A stretch of DNA of 64,000 nt from Escherichia coli (GTDB taxonomy: Bacteria; Pseudomonadota; Gammaproteobacteria; Enterobacterales; Enterobacteriaceae): the NCBI RefSeq assembly GCF_002854065.1, contig NZ_CP024147.1. The stretch is one strand, 5' to 3'. Shown here one piece after another: positions 4,930 through 36,111 of this stretch; position 1 is the first letter of the stretch, and every line of letters begins with the position of its first letter. The notes under the pieces are model-generated. The model did not search any database, was not told the DNA's origin, and saw only the letters and a list, made by a program, of their open reading frames with translations. The position numbers were made by a program, and so were the translations under genes.

Positions 4930-6876
4930 ATGAATATTTTAGGTTTTTTCCAGCGACTCGGTAGGGCGTTACAGCTCCCTATCGCGGTGCTGCCGGTGGC
5001 GGCACTGTTGCTGCGATTCGGTCAGCCAGATTTACTTAACGTTGCGTTTATTGCCCAGGCGGGCGGTGCGATTTTTGATAACCTCGCATTAATCTTCGCC
5101 ATCGGTGTGGCATCCAGCTGGTCGAAAGACAGCGCAGGTGCGGCGGCGCTGGCGGGTGCGGTAGGTTACTTTGTGTTAACCAAAGCGATGGTGACCATCA
5201 ACCCAGAAATTAACATGGGTGTACTGGCGGGTATCATTACCGGTCTGGTTGGTGGCGCAGCCTATAACCGTTGGTCCGATATTAAACTGCCGGACTTCCT
5301 GAGCTTCTTCGGCGGCAAACGCTTTGTGCCGATCGCCACCGGCTTCTTCTGTCTGGTGCTGGCGGCCATTTTTGGTTACGTCTGGCCGCCGGTACAGCAC
5401 GCTATCCATGCAGGCGGCGAGTGGATCGTTTCTGCGGGCGCGCTGGGTTCCGGTATCTTTGGTTTCATCAACCGTCTGCTGATCCCAACCGGTCTGCATC
5501 AGGTGCTGAACACCATCGCCTGGTTCCAGATTGGTGAATTCACCAACGCGGCGGGTACGGTTTTCCACGGCGACATCAACCGTTTCTACGCTGGTGACGG
5601 CACCGCGGGGATGTTCATGTCCGGCTTCTTCCCGATCATGATGTTCGGTCTGCCGGGTGCGGCGCTGGCGATGTACTTCGCAGCACCGAAAGAGCGTCGT
5701 CCGATGGTTGGCGGGATGCTGCTTTCTGTTGCTGTTACTGCGTTCCTGACCGGTGTGACTGAGCCGCTGGAATTCCTGTTCATGTTCCTTGCTCCGCTGC
5801 TGTACCTCCTGCACGCACTGCTGACCGGTATCAGCCTGTTTGTGGCAACGCTGCTGGGTATCCATGCTGGCTTCTCTTTCTCTGCGGGGGCTATCGACTA
5901 CGCGTTGATGTATAACCTGCCGGCCGCCAGCCAGAACGTCTGGATGCTGCTGGTTATGGGGGTTGTCTTCTTCGCTATCTACTTCGTGGTGTTCAGTTTG
6001 GTTATCCGCATGTTCAACCTGAAAACGCCGGGTCGTGAAGATAAAGAAGACGAGATCGTTACTGAAGAAGCCAACAGCAACACTGAAGAAGGCCTCAATC
6101 AACTGGCGACCAACTATATTGCTGCGGTTGGCGGCACTGACAACCTGAAAGCAATTGACGCCTGTATCACCCGTCTGCGCCTTACAGTGGCTGACTCTGC
6201 CCGCGTTAACGATACGATGTGTAAACGTCTGGGTGCTTCTGGTGTAGTAAAACTGAACAAACAGACTATTCAGGTGATTGTTGGCGCGAAAGCAGAATCC
6301 ATCGGCGATGCGATGAAGAAAGTCGTTGCCCGTGGCCCGGTAGCAGCTGCCTCTGCTGAAGCAACTCCGGCAACTACCGCTCCTGTAGCAAAACCGCAGG
6401 CTGTACCAAACGCGGTATCTATCGCGGAGCTGGTATCGCCGATTACCGGTGATGTCGTGGCACTGGATCAGGTTCCTGACGAAGCATTCGCCAGCAAAGC
6501 GGTGGGTGACGGTGTGGCGGTGAAACCGACAGATAAAATCGTCGTATCACCAGCCGCAGGGACAATCGTGAAAATCTTCAACACCAACCACGCGTTCTGT
6601 CTGGAAACCGATAAAGGCGCGGAGATCGTCGTCCATATGGGTATCGACACCGTAGCGCTGGAAGGTAAAGGCTTTAAACGTCTGGTGGAAGAGGGCGCGC
6701 AGGTAAGCGCAGGACAACCGATTCTGGAAATGGATCTGGATTACCTGAACGCTAACGCCCGTTCGATGATTAGCCCGGTGGTTTGCAGCAATATCGACGA
6801 TTTCAGCGGCCTTATCATTAAAGCTCAGGGGCATGTTGTGGCGGGTCAAACGCCGCTGTATGAAATCAAAAAGTAA
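4930..6876 (+). CDS. nagE: PTS N-acetylglucosamine-specific EIICBA component
   Basis: 648-aa ORF with N-terminal polytopic membrane EIIC, then EIIB (NLKAIDACITRLR) and EIIA domains. Confidence 0.94.
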   Translation: MNILGFFQRLGRALQLPIAVLPVAALLLRFGQPDLLNVAFIAQAGGAIFDNLALIFAIGVASSWSKDSAGAAALAGAVGYFVLTKAMVTINPEINMGVLAGIITGLVGGAAYNRWSDIKLPDFLSFFGGKRFVPIATGFFCLVLAAIFGYVWPPVQHAIHAGGEWIVSAGALGSGIFGFINRLLIPTGLHQVLNTIAWFQIGEFTNAAGTVFHGDINRFYAGDGTAGMFMSGFFPIMMFGLPGAALAMYFAAPKERRPMVGGMLLSVAVTAFLTGVTEPLEFLFMFLAPLLYLLHALLTGISLFVATLLGIHAGFSFSAGAIDYALMYNLPAASQNVWMLLVMGVVFFAIYFVVFSLVIRMFNLKTPGREDKEDEIVTEEANSNTEEGLNQLATNYIAAVGGTDNLKAIDACITRLRLTVADSARVNDTMCKRLGASGVVKLNKQTIQVIVGAKAESIGDAMKKVVARGPVAAASAEATPATTAPVAKPQAVPNAVSIAELVSPITGDVVALDQVPDEAFASKAVGDGVAVKPTDKIVVSPAAGTIVKIFNTNHAFCLETDKGAEIVVHMGIDTVALEGKGFKRLVEEGAQVSAGQPILEMDLDYLNANARSMISPVVCSNIDDFSGLIIKAQGHVVAGQTPLYEIKK

Positions 6877-11988: not shown

Positions 11989-12519
11989 TCAGGCATTGAG
12001 AATTTCGTCGAGATGCAACTCTTCAGAAATCTGTTTAACCCATTTTTCTACACGTTCAGCGGTCAGTTCCGGCTGACGGTCTTCGTCGATAGCCAGACCG
12101 ACAAAGTGGTCGTCATCTGCCAGACCTTTTGATGCTTCGAAATGATAGCCCGCAGTTGGCCAGTGACCAACGATGGTTGCACCGCGCGGTTCAATGATGT
12201 CGCGGATGGTGCCCAATGCGTCGCAGAAATATTCGGCGTAATCTTCCTGGTCACCACAACCAAACAGCGCAACCAGTTTGCCATTGAAATCAATCTCTTC
12301 GAGAGTCGGGAAGAAGTCATCCCAGTCACACTGCGCTTCGCCGTAATACCAGGTTGGGATGCCCAGCAGCAGAATGTCATAAGCTTCCAGATCTTCTTTG
12401 CTGCTTTTTGCAATGTCATGGACATCGGCAACGTCTTTACCAAGCTGTTTTTGAATCATTTTTGCGATATTTTCGGTATTACCGGTGTCGCTGCCGAAAA
12501 AGATGCCAGTGATAGCCAT
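11989..12519 (-). CDS. fldA: flavodoxin 1
   Basis: 176-aa product starting [23 protein letters not shown] (flavodoxin FMN-binding loop); the upstream in-frame extension in the ORF track was not used. Confidence 0.92.
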
Positions 12520-12658
12520 GAGTGAAATAACCTCTTGAAACTTATTGAAATGGGGGTGGAAAATTGCCCACGGATAAAGGCAATCATAGCAGAACAGGCA
12601 GTCTTGCGGAATCAGCAAACGAGCAGGACTGCACACTGTGCTACATGAAAGTGGAAAT

Positions 12659-29704: not shown

Positions 29705-30157
29705 ATGACGGAGTATTATCTCAATGAAACTGTTGTAACTTTTCCCGGGAATATTATTCAGGACAGTACGATTAATATGCTGCGCCTCAGCGATCCCGAC
29801 GCTGCACTCATTATCAGTCGGGGCCAGATGCAGGAAGGAGACGAATTAGCCTCCCAGATTGAACAGCAAATGAAAAAACTGGAGAAACAGGTAAAGGATC
29901 TTCACTACACGCCAGTTCAGGTAACACGGGTAGGGATTAATGACGGTGAACAAGGGCTGGAAATACAGAGCCAGTTTCTCCGGGGTAACGAGCAGGTGTA
30001 CCAGTGTCAGGTGGCATTTGTATTGCCGGGTGAGCGGGTCATGATGGCCTTCACCTACGCCAGAACCACACCGCTGACCCCGGCAGATATGACGCGCTGG
30101 GCTGAAATTAAAAAGAATCTGCGCTTCAGGATGCGGCAGGAAGCCAGGACGAATTAA
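29705..30157 (+). CDS. Eag-family (DUF1795) chaperone for a prePAAR effector, EagR-like
   Basis: 150-aa ORF MTEYYLNETVVTFPGNIIQDSTINML... immediately upstream (18-bp gap) of an Rhs gene that carries a prePAAR motif and TM regions; size, position and N-terminal pattern fit Eag chaperones. Confidence 0.6.
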   Translation: MTEYYLNETVVTFPGNIIQDSTINMLRLSDPDAALIISRGQMQEGDELASQIEQQMKKLEKQVKDLHYTPVQVTRVGINDGEQGLEIQSQFLRGNEQVYQCQVAFVLPGERVMMAFTYARTTPLTPADMTRWAEIKKNLRFRMRQEARTN

Positions 30158-30175
30158 TCATACAGGGAACGGGAC

Positions 30176-33100
30176 ATGGAAGAGGCATTCTGGGCGGCAA
30201 GACAGGGTGATGCCCTGCTGCATACGTCGTTTATGGCAGATGTGCTGGGGGCGGTGCTGGAGGTGGCCGCAAATGTCGTTATTGATGCTCTCATTGTCGG
30301 CACAACCTCGTTACTGGCGGCGTCAGTGGGGTTCACGATGGGGTGCACGGCCGTCGTGCTGACCGGTTTTGTGGCGGGTGTGGCGATGGTGTACACCGGC
30401 GTGACAGAAAAGGTCAGCGAAGCCTGTTCAGCCCTCGCAGATATGCTTTTCCCGCCTCAGATTGAAGGTTACATCCTCACCGGCTCTGGTGACACATGGA
30501 TCAACAGCAAACCTGCCGCGCGGGCAGCGGCGACTGCGGCATCGCGGCAGGACATTGAGGCGCAGGAGGCGCAGTCGAAGGCGGAACAGGAAGAAGCGCA
30601 GCGTCAGGAGGATGCCAGAACGTTCCGGGATGTGGCCGGGGAATATCTGGAAATGGCGGGGGCCATAGCCCTGGCGGTTAACCCGGTGACAGGGCCTGTG
30701 CTGATGTCCCGGGCGCTGCACGACCAGCTCAGTACGGAAGAAGGGCGTTCTGAAATGGTGGATGGCGTGACACATTTTGTGTCGGAACTATGGCAGCCCA
30801 CTGTGGCCAGTGCGGCCCCGGGCTCCACCCCGACCCCTGACGATAAAATCGACTGCCATAAACATCCTTCCTCACTGACGCAGTTTCTCGCACAAAAAAA
30901 AGCTGCCTTTCTGGATGACCCCCTGGGAACGGCCCTTAACCTGCTGAGTCCGGACGGTATGCTGGAAACCGCCTTTCAGGGAGTGAATGCGGTTATTGGC
31001 AGCATCAGTAATCTGTTCAAAGGCGATGACGAGCCGCCCGCAGCGGAATATATCGCGGAAGGCGCGCGGGATGTGCGTATCAACAGCCAGCCGGCGGCAC
31101 GCAGCGGGGCACGCTGTACCTGCGAGGCCAGGGTGGTGAATGAGCCGGGGAACGGGGCGTTTGTGTCACCGGATGTGCGCATTGGCGGTCCGTTACTGGT
31201 GGTCAGGGATATCAGAAGCGGCAGGTCGCAGATAACCCTGGTGGCAACTGTGGCGCTGATGTTTCTTCGCCCGGGCAAAATGCTTTCTAAAATCGCCTGT
31301 TTTGCTGCCAGTGTCGGGATGAGCATGCTGGCGCAGAAGGCCACCAGAGCCCTTCCGCATCCGGTCAATGCCGCCACCGGGGCCAAATACCTTGCCGATG
31401 ACGATGACTTCGATTTCAGTCTGCCGGGCCACTTTCCGCTGGACTGGCAGCGCGTGTACAGCAGTCGTGACGAACGCACGGAAGGAATGTTTGGTCAGGG
31501 CTGGAGTGTGATGTATGAAGTCAGCCTGGTGCGCACACCGGGTAACGCGGACGAAAACTGCATGACCTTTGTGTCGGGCATGGGGCGACGCCTGGATATG
31601 GAAGCCGTGCTGCCGGGGAGCGGGTTTTACAGCCCCGGCGAAGGACTGGCAGTCCGGCGTGGTGAGCAGGGGCACTGGCTTATCAGCAGCGATGATGGAC
31701 AGTTTTTTCTGTTTGAAGCCGACCCGCACAACCCGCAGCGCCAGCGGCTGAAAATGCTGGGCGACCGTAACAGCAACTGTCTGAATCTGTACTACGACGA
31801 CCGGGGACGTATCACTGAAATCAGCGGCGAACAGCAGCGTCCGTGCATCCGTCTGTATTACGAACTGGCGGCGCATCCCCGGCGGATGACACAGATTTAT
31901 CAGCATTTCCCTGAGACTGCACCTTTACTGCTGCGTCGTTACAGCTATGACGAGGCCGGCCACCTGAACGGCGTGTACGACAGCACGGGGCACCTGCTGC
32001 GTGAGTTTGCTTACGACGAAAACCACTGCATGACGCTGCACCGCCAGCCGGGCGGCGAAGGGTATTATTACCAGTGGGGCTGGTATGACGGTCCGGATGA
32101 TGCGGCGTGGCGGGTAACGGGGCACCACACGGACAGCGGTGAACAGTACCGGCTGGCGTGGGACCTGGCGCAGCGCAGGCTGTGCGTGACGGACGGACTG
32201 GGGCGCACGCGTTATCACCAGTGGGATGCGCAGAATCAGGTGACGGCGTACCAGGACGAAGCCGGACAGGTGACGACATTCCGCTGGAGCGACGAAGAAC
32301 GACTGTTGCTGGGGATGACCGACCCTCAGGGCGGCAAATGGCGCTATGTGTATGACCGGCAGGGGCATATCACGGAGACGCACGACCCGCTGGGGCGGGT
32401 GGCGCAGGCGCAGTGGCACCCGGTGTGGCACCAGCCGGAAACGGAGGTGGACGCGGCGGGAAACAGCTGGCGCTGTGTGTACGATGAACGCGGCAACCTT
32501 CTTGCCGTGACCGACCCGCTGCAGCAGAACACCCGGTATCAGTATGACCACCACGGCCAGGTGGTGCAGATAACGGATGTCCGTGGGGGGAATAAATACC
32601 TTCAGTGGAACGAAGACGGGCAGCTCATGCGGCATACGGACTGTTCCGGCTCGCAGACGGCCTGGTTCTACGACGAACGCACGCGGCTGATACGGATGAC
32701 AGACGCGCAGAGCCACAGCACGCGCTACGGGTATGACGACAGCGGTCATCTGACGGAGGTGATACTGGCGGACGGCCGCACGGTGAATTACCAGTCAGAC
32801 GCGGCGGGCAGGCTGGTGAAGTACACCAGCCCGATGGGGAGGATAACGCGCTGGCAGCGGGACGGGCAGGGCCGGGTGCGCAGCCGGACGGACGCGATGG
32901 GGCGCAGGACGGCGTTCGGGTACGACGCTTACGGGCGTCTGGTCACGCTCACGAACGAGAACGGAGAACGCTACCGGTTCCGCCATGATGTGCTGGACCG
33001 TCTGGCGGAGCAGATAAACCCGGACGGCTGCCGCCAGTCGTACCGCTACAACGCGCTGAACGCGGTCACGGAAGTGGTGTTCACCGGGGACCGGGGCGGT

Positions 33101-34810
33101 GAAATCCGCCACCGGCTGGCGCGTGATGCGGCGGGCCGGCTCACGGCAAAGGAGACAGCCGATGGCCGTACGGAATACGTCCATGATGCGGCTGACCGGC
33201 TACTGGAAATCCGCCGCCGGCGGTCGGATGCCGGGGAAACGGACGCCCCGGAGATTATCCGCTTCAGCTACGACAGACTGGGGCGGATGCTGAGCGAGGA
33301 GACGGCGCAGGGCATCCTGACCCACCAGTACGATGAACTGGGCAACCGGACTGCCACCACCTTTCCGGACGGCAGAACGCAGCGCCATCTGTACTACGGC
33401 AGCGGCCATCTCCAGCAGATAAATCTGGACCGGGAAGTCATCAGCGAGTTCACGCGCGACCACCTGCACCGTGAAGTGCTCAGAAGCCAGGGGCGACTGA
33501 GCACGCGGCAGCTTTACGACCCCGGCGGGCGGCTGAAGCGCAGGGAGACATACAGCGGGATGCGCGGGGTGGTACCGGAGACGTTCACGGACCGGCAGTA
33601 CAGCTACAGTGGCGAGGATGAACTGCTGAAGACGCGGCACAGCCGGCGGGGGGAAACGGATTACTTCTACGACCCCACGGGGCGCATCACGGCGTGTCGT
33701 TCGGAGGATGAGGGGTATCTGGCGAGCTGGCAGTACGACGCGGCGGGAAACCTGCTGGGGAGGCGCGCGGGGGAAAGGGCCACGGCAGAAAACAGCGTGG
33801 TGCCGTTCAACCGGCTGATGTCTTACCGTGGTGTGCACTACCGTTATGACGAATTTGGCCGTGCGGTGGAAAAGGAGGGCCGGAGCGGAACGCAGAGTTA
33901 CCGTTATGATGCGGAACACCGGATGGTGGAAGTGACGACAGCGCGGGGGACATACCGGTATGTGTACGATGCGCTGGGGAGGCGGACGGAAAAACAGCAC
34001 ATCAGCCCTGACGGAAAACCGTACAACCGGACAAAATTTTTATGGGACGGGATGCGGCTGGCGCAGGAGAGCAGGCCGGAGGGGACAGGCAGCCTGTATA
34101 TCTACAGGGACCAGGGGAGTTATGAACCGCTGGCGCGGGTGGATAAGGCGGGGAAAGAGGGACCGAACCGGATACTGTATTTTCACACGGATGTGAACGG
34201 CGCGCCGGAAGAGATGACGGACAGTGACGGGAAAATCGTGTGGGAGACGGGGTATCAGGTCTGGGGTAACACGATACAGGAGAAGGACCACGGCAGGGTG
34301 GAGCAGAACCTGCGCTACCAGGGACAGTACCTCGACAGGGAAACGGGGCTGCACTACAATCTGCACAGGTACTATGATCCGGATGTCGGGCGGTTCATGG
34401 TAACGGATCCGATAGGGCTGCTTGGTGGATTAAACTTATACCAATATGCACCGAATCCGTTGGGGTGGATCGACCCGTTAGGTTTAAAGTGTGGGCAACC
34501 TGAATGGACAAATCATGGATACAAACATTTTCCTCCAAAAAACAAATCATGGAAGGATATAATTAAATCAACAAAATCAGGCCCGGCAAAATATTCTCCC
34601 GATATTGATATTAAAACGCTGGAATACGATGTTTTTAATACAGGCACACCTGTTACCAACGGTAAACCATGGAAAGTAAAAGATATGGGGAAAGTTATTG
34701 GGGCCAGTGAGGGTAAAGAATCTCAATGGGTTCGAGTTGAACTTAGCGGTGGGACAATACATGGACATCCCATATCACTTGATGAATTCCGAAGGCTAAC
34801 AACACCATGA
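30176..34810 (+). CDS. Rhs-family polymorphic toxin, class II prePAAR type VI secretion effector architecture
   Basis: 1544-aa ORF: prePAAR motif AARQGDALLH (aa 7-16), hydrophobic TM region 1 (aa ~20-76), split PAAR-like segments (INSKPAAR, INSQPAARSGARCTC), TM region 2 (aa ~349-390), long YD/RHS repeat core (YDxxGRL repeats), C-terminal PxxxxDPIGLxGGxNxYxYxxNPLGWIDPLGL boundary, then a short variable tip. Confidence 0.9.
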   Translation: MEEAFWAARQGDALLHTSFMADVLGAVLEVAANVVIDALIVGTTSLLAASVGFTMGCTAVVLTGFVAGVAMVYTGVTEKVSEACSALADMLFPPQIEGYILTGSGDTWINSKPAARAAATAASRQDIEAQEAQSKAEQEEAQRQEDARTFRDVAGEYLEMAGAIALAVNPVTGPVLMSRALHDQLSTEEGRSEMVDGVTHFVSELWQPTVASAAPGSTPTPDDKIDCHKHPSSLTQFLAQKKAAFLDDPLGTALNLLSPDGMLETAFQGVNAVIGSISNLFKGDDEPPAAEYIAEGARDVRINSQPAARSGARCTCEARVVNEPGNGAFVSPDVRIGGPLLVVRDIRSGRSQITLVATVALMFLRPGKMLSKIACFAASVGMSMLAQKATRALPHPVNAATGAKYLADDDDFDFSLPGHFPLDWQRVYSSRDERTEGMFGQGWSVMYEVSLVRTPGNADENCMTFVSGMGRRLDMEAVLPGSGFYSPGEGLAVRRGEQGHWLISSDDGQFFLFEADPHNPQRQRLKMLGDRNSNCLNLYYDDRGRITEISGEQQRPCIRLYYELAAHPRRMTQIYQHFPETAPLLLRRYSYDEAGHLNGVYDSTGHLLREFAYDENHCMTLHRQPGGEGYYYQWGWYDGPDDAAWRVTGHHTDSGEQYRLAWDLAQRRLCVTDGLGRTRYHQWDAQNQVTAYQDEAGQVTTFRWSDEERLLLGMTDPQGGKWRYVYDRQGHITETHDPLGRVAQAQWHPVWHQPETEVDAAGNSWRCVYDERGNLLAVTDPLQQNTRYQYDHHGQVVQITDVRGGNKYLQWNEDGQLMRHTDCSGSQTAWFYDERTRLIRMTDAQSHSTRYGYDDSGHLTEVILADGRTVNYQSDAAGRLVKYTSPMGRITRWQRDGQGRVRSRTDAMGRRTAFGYDAYGRLVTLTNENGERYRFRHDVLDRLAEQINPDGCRQSYRYNALNAVTEVVFTGDRGGEIRHRLARDAAGRLTAKETADGRTEYVHDAADRLLEIRRRRSDAGETDAPEIIRFSYDRLGRMLSEETAQGILTHQYDELGNRTATTFPDGRTQRHLYYGSGHLQQINLDREVISEFTRDHLHREVLRSQGRLSTRQLYDPGGRLKRRETYSGMRGVVPETFTDRQYSYSGEDELLKTRHSRRGETDYFYDPTGRITACRSEDEGYLASWQYDAAGNLLGRRAGERATAENSVVPFNRLMSYRGVHYRYDEFGRAVEKEGRSGTQSYRYDAEHRMVEVTTARGTYRYVYDALGRRTEKQHISPDGKPYNRTKFLWDGMRLAQESRPEGTGSLYIYRDQGSYEPLARVDKAGKEGPNRILYFHTDVNGAPEEMTDSDGKIVWETGYQVWGNTIQEKDHGRVEQNLRYQGQYLDRETGLHYNLHRYYDPDVGRFMVTDPIGLLGGLNLYQYAPNPLGWIDPLGLKCGQPEWTNHGYKHFPPKNKSWKDIIKSTKSGPAKYSPDIDIKTLEYDVFNTGTPVTNGKPWKVKDMGKVIGASEGKESQWVRVELSGGTIHGHPISLDEFRRLTTP
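30194..30223 (+). other. prePAAR motif (AARxxDxxxH)
   Basis: Codons 7-16 encode AARQGDALLH. Confidence 0.7.
34487..34810 (+). other. Rhs C-terminal polymorphic toxin domain (family not recognised)
   Basis: 107 codons after DPLGL: KCGQPEWTNHGYKHFPPKNKSWKDIIKSTKSGPAKYSPDIDIKTLEYDVFNTGTPVTNGKPWKVKDMGKVIGASEGKESQWVRVELSGGTIHGHPISLDEFRRLTTP; abrupt drop in GC relative to the Rhs core. Confidence 0.7.
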
Positions 34811-35100
34811 ACATTGATTTCTTAGGAAAAAAAGGGAATGTAATTTTTAATGACTTCTCCCTGAAACAAAGCATCCCTCTTAATGAACAGCGAGATGAAC
34901 TTAAGGAAGATATGCTCCAGGTTGAATATCCTGGTGGGTATCTTTTGGATGTTGGGTGGCGACCATCTTTTAATTTAAATGGGAATTTTTATATTTGTTT
35001 AATAAAGGATTTTGATTGGGATACTCCCATTTATAATGGTTCTGCGAAAGATATTGTCTCATTATTATTTGAAATTAACCAAGCTATAAATAAACTTTAA
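34807..35100 (+). CDS. putative cognate immunity protein of the Rhs toxin tip
   Basis: 97-aa AT-rich ORF whose ATG overlaps the rhs stop (ATGA); the usual toxin-immunity arrangement in Rhs loci; no family recognised. Confidence 0.65.
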   Translation: MNIDFLGKKGNVIFNDFSLKQSIPLNEQRDELKEDMLQVEYPGGYLLDVGWRPSFNLNGNFYICLIKDFDWDTPIYNGSAKDIVSLLFEINQAINKL

Positions 35101-35138
35101 AAAAGCCGGGAAGAAAATAACATCTTCCCGGCTTTTTT
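35099..35138. terminator. bidirectional intrinsic terminator shared by the immunity gene and the convergent SymE-like gene
   Basis: A6-gccgggaag-(loop)-cttcccggc-T6. Confidence 0.8.
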
Positions 35139-35143
35139 ATTAT

Positions 35144-35473
35144 TTAACTCTCGTCCAGCACACTAAACATCCCGTTCCGCATCCCCTTAACCACCTGTTT
35201 AACCTGATAAAGTTCCTCCCGCAGCTCCTGCACCTCGTCACTGTCAGCGATAATGGTCAGGCACCCCTCCGAAATCTTCACCGTGACACCCCGCCCGGTA
35301 TCAAATCCGGCCTCTTTCAGCCAGTCGCCCTTAAGGTTCAGGCAGGGGTGTCGTGAGTAGTACGTGGTCATGTAGGTTTTGCTGTTTATGTGGCGGGCTC
35401 TGACATAGCCGACTTTATAGCGGCGCTGTGTTTTGGAAATGGTGACTTCTGGCGTAATATCGTGTTCAGCCAT
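35144..35473 (-). CDS. SymE-like toxin (AbrB/SpoVT-fold, type I toxin-antitoxin family)
   Basis: 109-aa ORF; segment YYSRHPCLNLKGDWLKEAGFDTGRGVTVKISEGCLTI resembles the SymE signature as I recall it (xLKGxWLxxAGFxTG...EGC). Confidence 0.6.
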   Translation of the reverse strand: MAEHDITPEVTISKTQRRYKVGYVRARHINSKTYMTTYYSRHPCLNLKGDWLKEAGFDTGRGVTVKISEGCLTIIADSDEVQELREELYQVKQVVKGMRNGMFSVLDES

Positions 35474-35601
35474 GATTAACTACCTTGATGAGTTGCTTGC
35501 GGGGAGCGCGCTTTCGTAATCTTGCCCTGCTAGCGGATTAACTTCACAAAAATCATTTCCCAACGTCTACACTTACTCCTGTTAATATCTCAGGAGCAGT
35601 A

Positions 35602-36111
35602 ATGAATCAGCAACGATTTGATGACAGCACCCTAATCCGTATCTTCGCCCTTCATGAGTTACATCGACTGAAAGAACATGGCTTAACGCGCGGGGCGCTT
35701 CTCGATTATCACAGCCGCTATAAACTCGTCTTTCTGGCTCATTCCCAGCCGGAATACCGCAAACTTGGCCCGTTCGTGGCTGATATTCACCAGTGGCAAA
35801 ATCTGGATGACTATTACAACCAGTACCGCCAACGCGTAGTTGTTTTGCTTTCTCACCCCGCCAACCGACGTGACCACACCAACGTTTTGATGCACGTTCA
35901 GGGTTATTTTCGCCCGCATATTGATTCCACAGAACGCCAGCAGCTGGCTGCGCTTATCGACAGTTATCGCCGTGGCGAGCAACCACTTCTTGCGCCGCTG
36001 ATGCGTATCAAACACTATATGGCGCTTTATCCTGACGCCTGGCTTTCAGGGCAGCGTTATTTCGAACTTTGGCCGCGTGTGATTAACTTGCGCCATTCAG
36101 GAGTTTTATGA
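35602..36111 (+). CDS. ybgA: DUF1722-family protein YbgA
   Basis: 169-aa ORF; overlaps the phr start by 4 nt (ybgA-phr operon). Confidence 0.88.
   Translation: MNQQRFDDSTLIRIFALHELHRLKEHGLTRGALLDYHSRYKLVFLAHSQPEYRKLGPFVADIHQWQNLDDYYNQYRQRVVVLLSHPANRRDHTNVLMHVQGYFRPHIDSTERQQLAALIDSYRRGEQPLLAPLMRIKHYMALYPDAWLSGQRYFELWPRVINLRHSGVL

Follow-up and report, generated by a model that had tools for sequence, protein, structure and literature searches.

SymE proteins are MazE/AbrB-like DNA-binding proteins that inhibit growth when they are overproduced. The described system closest to the locus analyzed here is symE/symR of Escherichia coli K-12, which belongs to the hsd-mcr restriction locus, with symE located between hsdS and mcrB, carries a LexA box, and is restrained by the antisense RNA SymR. 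The K-12 protein is now regarded as a MazE-like DNA-binding and nucleoid-condensing protein and not as an RNase (PMC11894785; RefSeq product name), and its binding to DNA is reported to be without sequence specificity. Pairs of symE and symR are listed for E. coli strains in TADB.

A second group of related systems is formed by the rhs loci. The displacement of Rhs C termini and the resulting orphan toxin/immunity arrays were reportedly described by Jackson in 2009, Poole in 2011, and Koskiniemi in 2014. The locus described here has the same constituents, namely, a main Rhs protein with its variable tip and a small ORF for immunity, and related loci have arrays that begin at the DPxGL-coding core end. 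However, the orphan-array literature that we searched does not present symE as a recurrent boundary on the 3' side of every cassette, and searches for a systematic link between SymE and Rhs returned passing mentions only, of SymE genes near type VI secretion system (T6SS), Rhs, or CDI loci. Two small RNAs have been mapped in the same kind of neighborhood, beside Rhs genes. IsrA is a 423-nt Salmonella RNA (LT2, 339338 to 339760) that is reported to be cis-antisense to STM0294.1n, with inverse expression of the two (PMC2330248), and Ssr1 was mapped in Shigella flexneri (strain 301, 5' end at 286979), with an Rhs gene on one side and a hypothetical gene on the other; the original papers made no link to a SymE-family gene.

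Here we analyzed a symE-like gene in a 64,000-nucleotide stretch of E. coli DNA (the window) and compared it with K-12 symE/symR, with related copies across the Enterobacterales, and with the rhs loci at which these copies reside.

RESULTS

An intact SymE-family gene lies between an Rhs cassette and ybgA

The order of genes at the locus is kdpA, ybfA, a DcrB/EagR-type chaperone gene, rhs, a 97-aa ORF, a hairpin, the symE-like gene, ybgA, phr, and dtpD (Table 1), and E. coli PapRG-06-5 is 100% identical to the window over the symE-like region. This order bears out a preliminary description of the locus, which had placed a symE homologue between an Rhs toxin/immunity cassette and ybgA and had noted that it is convergent with the immunity gene. 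The coding sequence is intact and is annotated by PGAP in genomes that are identical to the window. The core encoded by rhs ends in a DPxGL motif, the C-terminal tip beyond it is variable, and a small ORF follows downstream. No toxin domain or family was recognized in the tip (~134 aa, 34406 to 34810), and no family was matched by the 97-aa ORF, in searches of Pfam and NCBIfam; the two were found together at two different E. coli loci, and the immunity role of the ORF is putative. With regard to the upstream side, vgrG was not detected anywhere in the window, and ybfA is the gene upstream of the DcrB/EagR-type gene and rhs (29705 to 34810); vgrG is present at paralogous loci with near-identical Rhs cores.

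The preliminary description had recognized a SymE-like core in the protein, and profile searches agree: residues 16 to 75 match positions 1 to 53 of the 54 positions of the Pfam SymE_toxin model (PF08845) with an E value of 2e-19. Against the NCBIfam equivalog model for K-12 SymE (NF010128), the protein scored 50.7 bits, which is below the cut-off of 132 bits, and it shares 42% identity with K-12 SymE over 72 aa. Because of this score and this level of identity, the gene is by these measures a SymE-family paralogue of K-12 symE and not its orthologue, and it is best placed, as an intact member, in a distinct branch of the PF08845 family. The two proteins thus belong to the same Pfam family, but the symE-like protein differs from K-12 SymE by an 8-residue insertion before the core and by another C-terminal tail. 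An AlphaFold2 model of low confidence (mean pLDDT of 64) has a long helix after a beta-beta-alpha-beta-beta core; a Foldseek comparison of this model with the PDB gave no match at an E value of ≤0.001, and a sequence search of the PDB with the protein found no relative. The analogy with K-12 SymE predicts DNA binding and nucleoid condensation by the protein when it is abundant.

Table 1. Features of the symE-like locus, with positions in the window
Feature	Position	Strand	Remarks
DcrB/EagR-type chaperone gene, upstream of rhs	29705..30157	+	97-98% identity to "DcrB-related protein" genes of L001 and L002
Rhs protein, 1544 aa, with C-terminal toxin tip	30176..34810	+	PF03527 (RHS) at core end
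Putative Rhs immunity ORF, 97 aa	34807..35100	+	Start overlaps rhs stop; ORF list
Bidirectional intrinsic terminator common to immunity ORF and symE-like gene	35098..35139	both	17-bp stem, T-runs on either side
symE-like CDS	35144..35473	-	Intact, 109 aa plus stop, ATG start; ORF list, PF08845
Rfam isrA (RF01385) match	35274..35402	+	Antisense to symE codons 24-67; 112.9 bits (gathering score, 51)
SymR-type antisense promoter (predicted)	35433..35460	+	In symE codons 5-13; -35 TTGGAA at 35433-35438, 16-nt spacer, -10 TAATAT at 35455-35460
Degenerate SymR-like antisense RNA gene	35468..35521	+	5' half kept; R1 alignment
Shine-Dalgarno sequence AAGGT of symE-like gene	35482..35486	-	9 nt 5' of ATG, within conserved ~35-nt leader; sequence, cross-locus alignment
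ybgA, chromosomal flank	35602..36111	+	NCBIfam NF007549, 349 bits; downstream of any antisense transcript from 35468

The gene has a shared terminator but no recognizable LexA box or sense promoter

The shared bidirectional terminator named in the preliminary description is genuine. With T-runs on both strands, it has folding energies of -26.5 and -27.4 kcal/mol and z-scores close to -8 (-8.2 and -7.6), and it is part of the symE module in other genera, where cross-genus alignment shows a conserved GCCGGGAAG...CCCGGC arrangement. On the + strand, no terminator was found between 35140 and 35700 and so none lies between the start of the antisense RNA (see below) and ybgA.

The spacer between the symE-like gene and ybgA is 128 bp long. 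The earlier failure to find a LexA box in this spacer was reproduced and could be extended: no CTG-N10-CAG occurs there or within 300 nt upstream of the gene, in a scan that recovered the K-12 symE box at -93 as a positive control, and a search with the full consensus, allowing three mismatches, was also negative. This sets the window copy apart from K-12 symE/symR. In the window as a whole, CTG-N10-CAG occurs 31 times, compared with 12.6 expected from shuffles; this excess likely reflects codon bias for CTG and CAG and not LexA sites. In a paralogous E. coli copy (L002), the CTG-N10-CAG sequence CTGATTTTTAACGCAG is found 79 nt upstream of symE (about 6435 to 6450 of that locus), at the tail of the SymR-like terminator and at a position like that of the K-12 LexA box. 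By eye, the corresponding tail of L001 (from E. coli SCU-111) has CCG where L002 has CTG. The L002 sequence may be a vestige of SOS control.

No sigma-70-like site was recognized upstream of the symE-like gene in a scan that required 9 of 12 consensus positions. Such a scan is able to miss real promoters, and the antisense promoter of this locus, which has 8 of 12 consensus positions, was missed at that threshold.

Native copies carry a homologue of SymR across the start of symE

The preliminary description had expected a cis-antisense RNA over the 5' end of the gene and had held that it could not be shown from sequence. Such an RNA gene does exist over the 5' end in the gene family, but the second part of the statement was too cautious, as a SymR homologue is visible beside paralogues and orthologues of the window gene. 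In native copies, a two-hairpin antisense element begins 5 to 6 nt inside the coding sequence and extends over the start codon and the Shine-Dalgarno site. Hairpin 1 has an anti-Shine-Dalgarno CCUC in its loop, and hairpin 2 has a 14- to 16-bp stem, which is unlike in sequence in every locus and scans as an intrinsic terminator. Folds of the element at native loci have z-scores of -4.4 to -6.5.

The Rfam symR model matched the element of L001 over its full length (49.9 bits; E = 1.6e-8). In the other direction, a covariance model built from four loci (R1) matched three independent loci with 66 to 78 bits and K-12 symR with 46.3 bits. These reciprocal matches indicate that the subfamily has a homologue of SymR. 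When aligned to R1, and thus in an alignment fitted to the model, 99.1% of cells pair, compared with 82% in shuffles; in the same fitted alignment, 15 of 27 pairs have double-sided, compensatory changes, a number reached by 0 of 500 shuffles. As in K-12, the antisense RNA of native copies thus covers the AUG and the Shine-Dalgarno sequence, and the homology includes the sequences of the -10 element and the start site. The predicted antisense promoter aligns with the -10 element TAGAAT and the mapped transcription start of K-12 SymR, and its hexamers and their spacing are kept in 13 loci, including variants of 40% identity with differing spacer sequences, the -10 element being TAATAT or TAGAAT. 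Synonymous differences among the copies are lowest in codons 1 to 14, at 0.09 to 0.15, compared with 0.25 to 0.55 elsewhere.

The antisense gene in the window is degenerate

At the window copy, the predicted promoter and the first ~40 nt of the RNA are retained, but a 28-nt deletion (GAGCG|CGC) has taken out hairpin 2, the terminator hairpin that K-12 SymR and the native copies possess, and three pairs of hairpin 1 are broken. The remaining gene scores 31.9 bits with R1, the Rfam symR model finds no match in the window even at an E value of ≤10, and the region folds no better than shuffles, with a z-score of +0.39 compared with the values of the native loci given above. Shigella flexneri, Escherichia sp. 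strain E1V33, and E. coli GF50 have the same deletion in their copies next to ybgA. At the corresponding site of K-12 (ybfD-ybgA spacer; L033, 11855 to 12001, corresponding to 35478 to 35601 of the window), the symE leader and SymR remnant are kept and the coding sequence is gone, the ISAs1/H-repeat gene ybfD being located where the coding sequence would sit. A leader and remnant of this kind, devoid of the coding sequence, is also present upstream of ybgA in ~4000 other E. coli genomes. Because the deletion is the same in Shigella, E1V33, and GF50 and the remnant persists in K-12, the deletion appears to be old. A symE gene is found next to ybgA in only 102 of 5,426 complete E. coli genomes and has hence been lost from this site in ~98% of them.

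The symE module recurs at the downstream edge of Rhs and CDI cassettes

In a survey of species-representative genomes, 21 of 22 loci had the Rhs core-end motif on the strand opposite to symE, 0.7 to 1.1 kb past its 3' end, a figure that comes from a single-protein scan of close relatives and is valid for this SymE subfamily alone. At a second E. coli locus, the same toxin tip and immunity ORF are followed by a symE-like gene, here behind vgrG and a DcrB-type gene, and at a third E. coli locus another tip is followed by the same symE ending. Salmonella SPI-6 carries, in this order, VgrG, DcrB, Rhs, an immunity gene, and convergent symE, with more symE copies behind orphan tips, and the order of Rhs, immunity gene, and convergent symE recurs in Erwinia, Pectobacterium, and Shigella. 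In Xenorhabdus, the symE-like gene adjoins a CdiI gene. The subfamily is hence associated with Rhs and CdiA cassettes, unlike K-12 symE with its restriction locus. Cross-locus alignment delimits the conserved block, which is composed of the terminator, the coding sequence, and ~50 nt upstream of the ATG.

Orphan arrays are built from a repeated unit of an rhs core end, a tip, an immunity gene, a terminator, and a 5'-truncated symE gene (L024, 2859 to 12448; also L014, L017, L020, L023, and L036/L037). In L024, seven such units are each closed by a symE fragment. These fragments mostly lack the start codon and the first ~11 codons, and some have stops, frameshifts, or deletions; the truncation junction at codon ~11 to 12 recurs in four genera. 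A full-length symE copy forms the end of an orphan array.

The preliminary description had suggested that a toxin-like gene directly behind an Rhs immunity gene might be functionally linked to it. That this position is not accidental is borne out by the survey. The link between symE and Rhs is real and looks structural rather than like a functional partnership, reflecting a cassette or mobile-element architecture that the two have in common.

Complete copies continue into repressor, primase, and integrase genes

In complete copies, symE is preceded in the same orientation by a gene for an RstR-like helix-turn-helix (HTH) repressor, and genes for a 987-aa DnaG-type primase and an Xer-type integrase are divergent from these, with promoter-like sites in the spacer between the repressor and primase genes. 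The HTH, primase, and Xer genes were seen beyond symE in E. coli SCU-111 (L001) and Erwinia pyrifoliae and in part in Citrobacter sedlakii and Xenorhabdus; the loci with such a context are L001, L008 to L010, and L012, and L034 was also noted. SCU-111 contains an exact 23-nt direct repeat, GATCCGATAGGGCTGGCGGGGGG, at 5707 to 5729 and 12511 to 12533 of the locus, which encodes DPIGLAGG, that is, the boundary between Rhs core and toxin. The two repeats bracket 6.8 kb with the tip, the immunity gene, symE, and the HTH, primase, and integrase genes, and an older tip lies beyond. In Erwinia pyrifoliae, units of the element are found in tandem. From this gene order and the one pair of direct repeats, the module looks like part of an integrative mobile element by which Rhs tips are exchanged where rhs encodes DPxGL. 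In the window, the repressor, primase, and integrase genes are absent, symE abuts ybgA, and the 23-mer was not found. An element with a repressor, a primase, and an Xer-type integrase that carries Rhs tips is not described in the literature that we searched.

Matches to isrA and Ssr1 are antisense to symE

The isrA match in the window (Table 1) is accompanied by a partial match to Ssr1 (RF02627; 35100 to 35443, + strand), which is likewise antisense to symE. The isrA model matched every full-length symE-like coding sequence tested, in the same register of codons 24 to 67. Because the match is always antisense to this central part of the coding sequence, the model may mostly capture coding conservation. 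With regard to gene order, the SPI-6 arrangement of Rhs, immunity gene, and symE is that of the window. However, in the Salmonella symE copy that we examined, an rhs fragment joined at codon 7 takes the place of the 5' end, and there is no SymR-like element. At one Salmonella locus, mapping of the ends of IsrA by promoter and terminator prediction found no terminator on the relevant strand. A -10-like GATAAT at 35250 to 35255 was considered as an IsrA promoter and dropped, as it is not conserved in Salmonella.

The protein is under moderate constraint

Comparison of the symE-like gene with its homologues gave dN/dS values of 0.2 to 0.5 (median, 0.38), and a value of 0.44 was obtained between two ybgA-locus copies, in which core residues 47 to 73 are invariant. 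The frame of full-length copies is open across genera. The copies are mosaic, in that the window copy resembles L002 more than it does its same-locus counterpart in GF50, and the paralogues show signs of having exchanged sequence. These values, which are blurred by low dS where the RNA gene overlaps and by recombination among copies, suggest that the protein is moderately constrained.

DISCUSSION

In this study, the observations made in the preliminary description were confirmed in all details, and its interpretation was supported in part. We consider it fairly probable, if by no means certain, that the gene in the window is an intact SymE-family gene from a conserved module at the edge of Rhs-tip cassettes, that in native copies a SymR-type antisense RNA, rather than LexA, controls such a gene, and that the window copy, left behind between rhsC and ybgA with a damaged antisense gene and no evident promoter, is probably weakly expressed or silent. 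The module would span ~425 bp (35098 to 35521 in the window) and comprise the 3'-side terminator, the coding sequence, and the ~50-nt leader that is predicted to encode the antisense RNA. Across the Enterobacterales, it is found repeatedly at the downstream edge of tip and immunity cassettes, of Rhs and sometimes of CdiA, and in its complete form it runs on into the RstR-like repressor, DnaG-type primase, and Xer-type integrase genes. We therefore regard it as the probable edge of an integrative element, which apparently brings new tips to the end of rhs that encodes DPxGL. The protein of native copies would be restrained, as in K-12 symE/symR, by the ~75- to 80-nt two-hairpin antisense RNA, with no LexA control. 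In the window copy, the protein gene is intact and the putative antisense promoter is present, whereas the terminator hairpin is lost and hairpin 1 is weakened. A transcript from the retained promoter would read into ybgA-phr and would still pair with the start region of symE. From the lost terminator hairpin, the missing element genes, and the failure to recognize a sense promoter, we take the window copy to be, most likely, a relic at the rhsC-ybgA junction that is silent or expressed weakly. It should be noted that "relic" may be too strong a word and that the protein may still be used, because the ORF is intact and dN/dS is below 1 after what appears to be an old loss of the terminator. 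In addition, a SymR-like RNA encoded by a paralogue elsewhere in the genome could act in trans on the window gene, given the near identity of the copies in the target region. Antisense transcripts of another kind over such genes are also known, as shown by Salmonella IsrA (PMC2330248).

The alternative that survives best, although we consider it rather unlikely, is that the locus is an active type I addiction pair, in which a toxic SymE-like protein is repressed by a long IsrA-like RNA or by a terminator-less SymR-like RNA and in which the pair stabilizes the Rhs cassette. Such a pair would agree with an ORF that is intact and constrained, with the retention of the antisense promoter, with an isrA match above threshold, and with the listing of E. 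coli symE/symR pairs in TADB; in Salmonella, IsrA and its overlapping gene are inversely expressed (PMC2330248). However, the SymR-like gene has lost its terminator hairpin and has a weakened hairpin 1, and a sense promoter was not found, while the isrA model, which always covers codons 24 to 67, maybe records only coding conservation. A strong addiction module also predicts otherwise than loss of the gene from this site in ~98% of complete E. coli genomes. Because the antisense terminator hairpin is deleted and no sense promoter is recognized, an active type I toxin-antitoxin pair at the window copy is doubtful.

We think it improbable that the protein is a MazE/AbrB-type DNA-binding regulator, acting alone or together with the HTH repressor on transcription of the Rhs tip and immunity genes or on integration and excision of the element. 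The arrangement of complete copies, with symE directly downstream of the RstR-like repressor gene and divergent from the primase and integrase genes, the promoter-like sites in the divergent spacer, and the synteny with toxin cassettes that is kept across genera would all be in line with such a role. On the other hand, DNA binding by K-12 SymE is reported to lack sequence specificity, operator-like repeats were not noticed, the window has no element genes left to regulate, and the predicted structure, with a mean pLDDT of 64, is too uncertain for a claim about its fold. Equally improbable is the view that symE is inert DNA, kept only as a flank, homology arm, or attachment-site neighbor for tip exchange with an incidental open frame. 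In its favor, orphan arrays often contain copies that are truncated, lack a start, or carry frameshifts or stops, junctions at codon ~11 to 12 occur in four genera, and copies are mosaic, with that in the window nearer L002 than the same-locus copy of GF50. Against it, full-length copies are open across genera with dN/dS values of 0.2 to 0.5 and core residues 47 to 73 are invariant between ybgA-locus copies.

Returning to the reading of the window gene as a stranded member of a cassette-edge module, we tentatively suggest a wider scheme, to which we give somewhat less than even credence. The symE/symR module would be the edge of undescribed small integrative elements, equipped with an RstR-like repressor, a DnaG-type primase, and an Xer-type recombinase, that insert at the DPxGL-coding end of rhs and cdiA. 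With each insertion, a new tip and immunity gene would come into frame and the old pair would be displaced downstream, and orphan arrays would arise from repeated rounds of this kind. The symE gene in the window would be a scar left at rhsC by one such insertion, and IsrA and Ssr1 would be transcripts of the same module.

Taken by itself, the gene is an ordinary and already annotated paralogue of K-12 symE; what matters is the SymE/SymR-type module as a recurrent downstream boundary of Rhs and CDI cassettes. The SymR homologue and its decay at the window locus are worth following, and most of all so is the architecture of cassette edge and integrative element at related loci. The natural variants with intact and terminator-less SymR provide material for studying the decay of type I antisense control. 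If the architecture is confirmed, two published "island" small RNAs, IsrA and Ssr1, would be tied to SymE-family genes, and the element would offer a concrete mechanism for the swapping of Rhs toxin tips and an origin for the orphan arrays.
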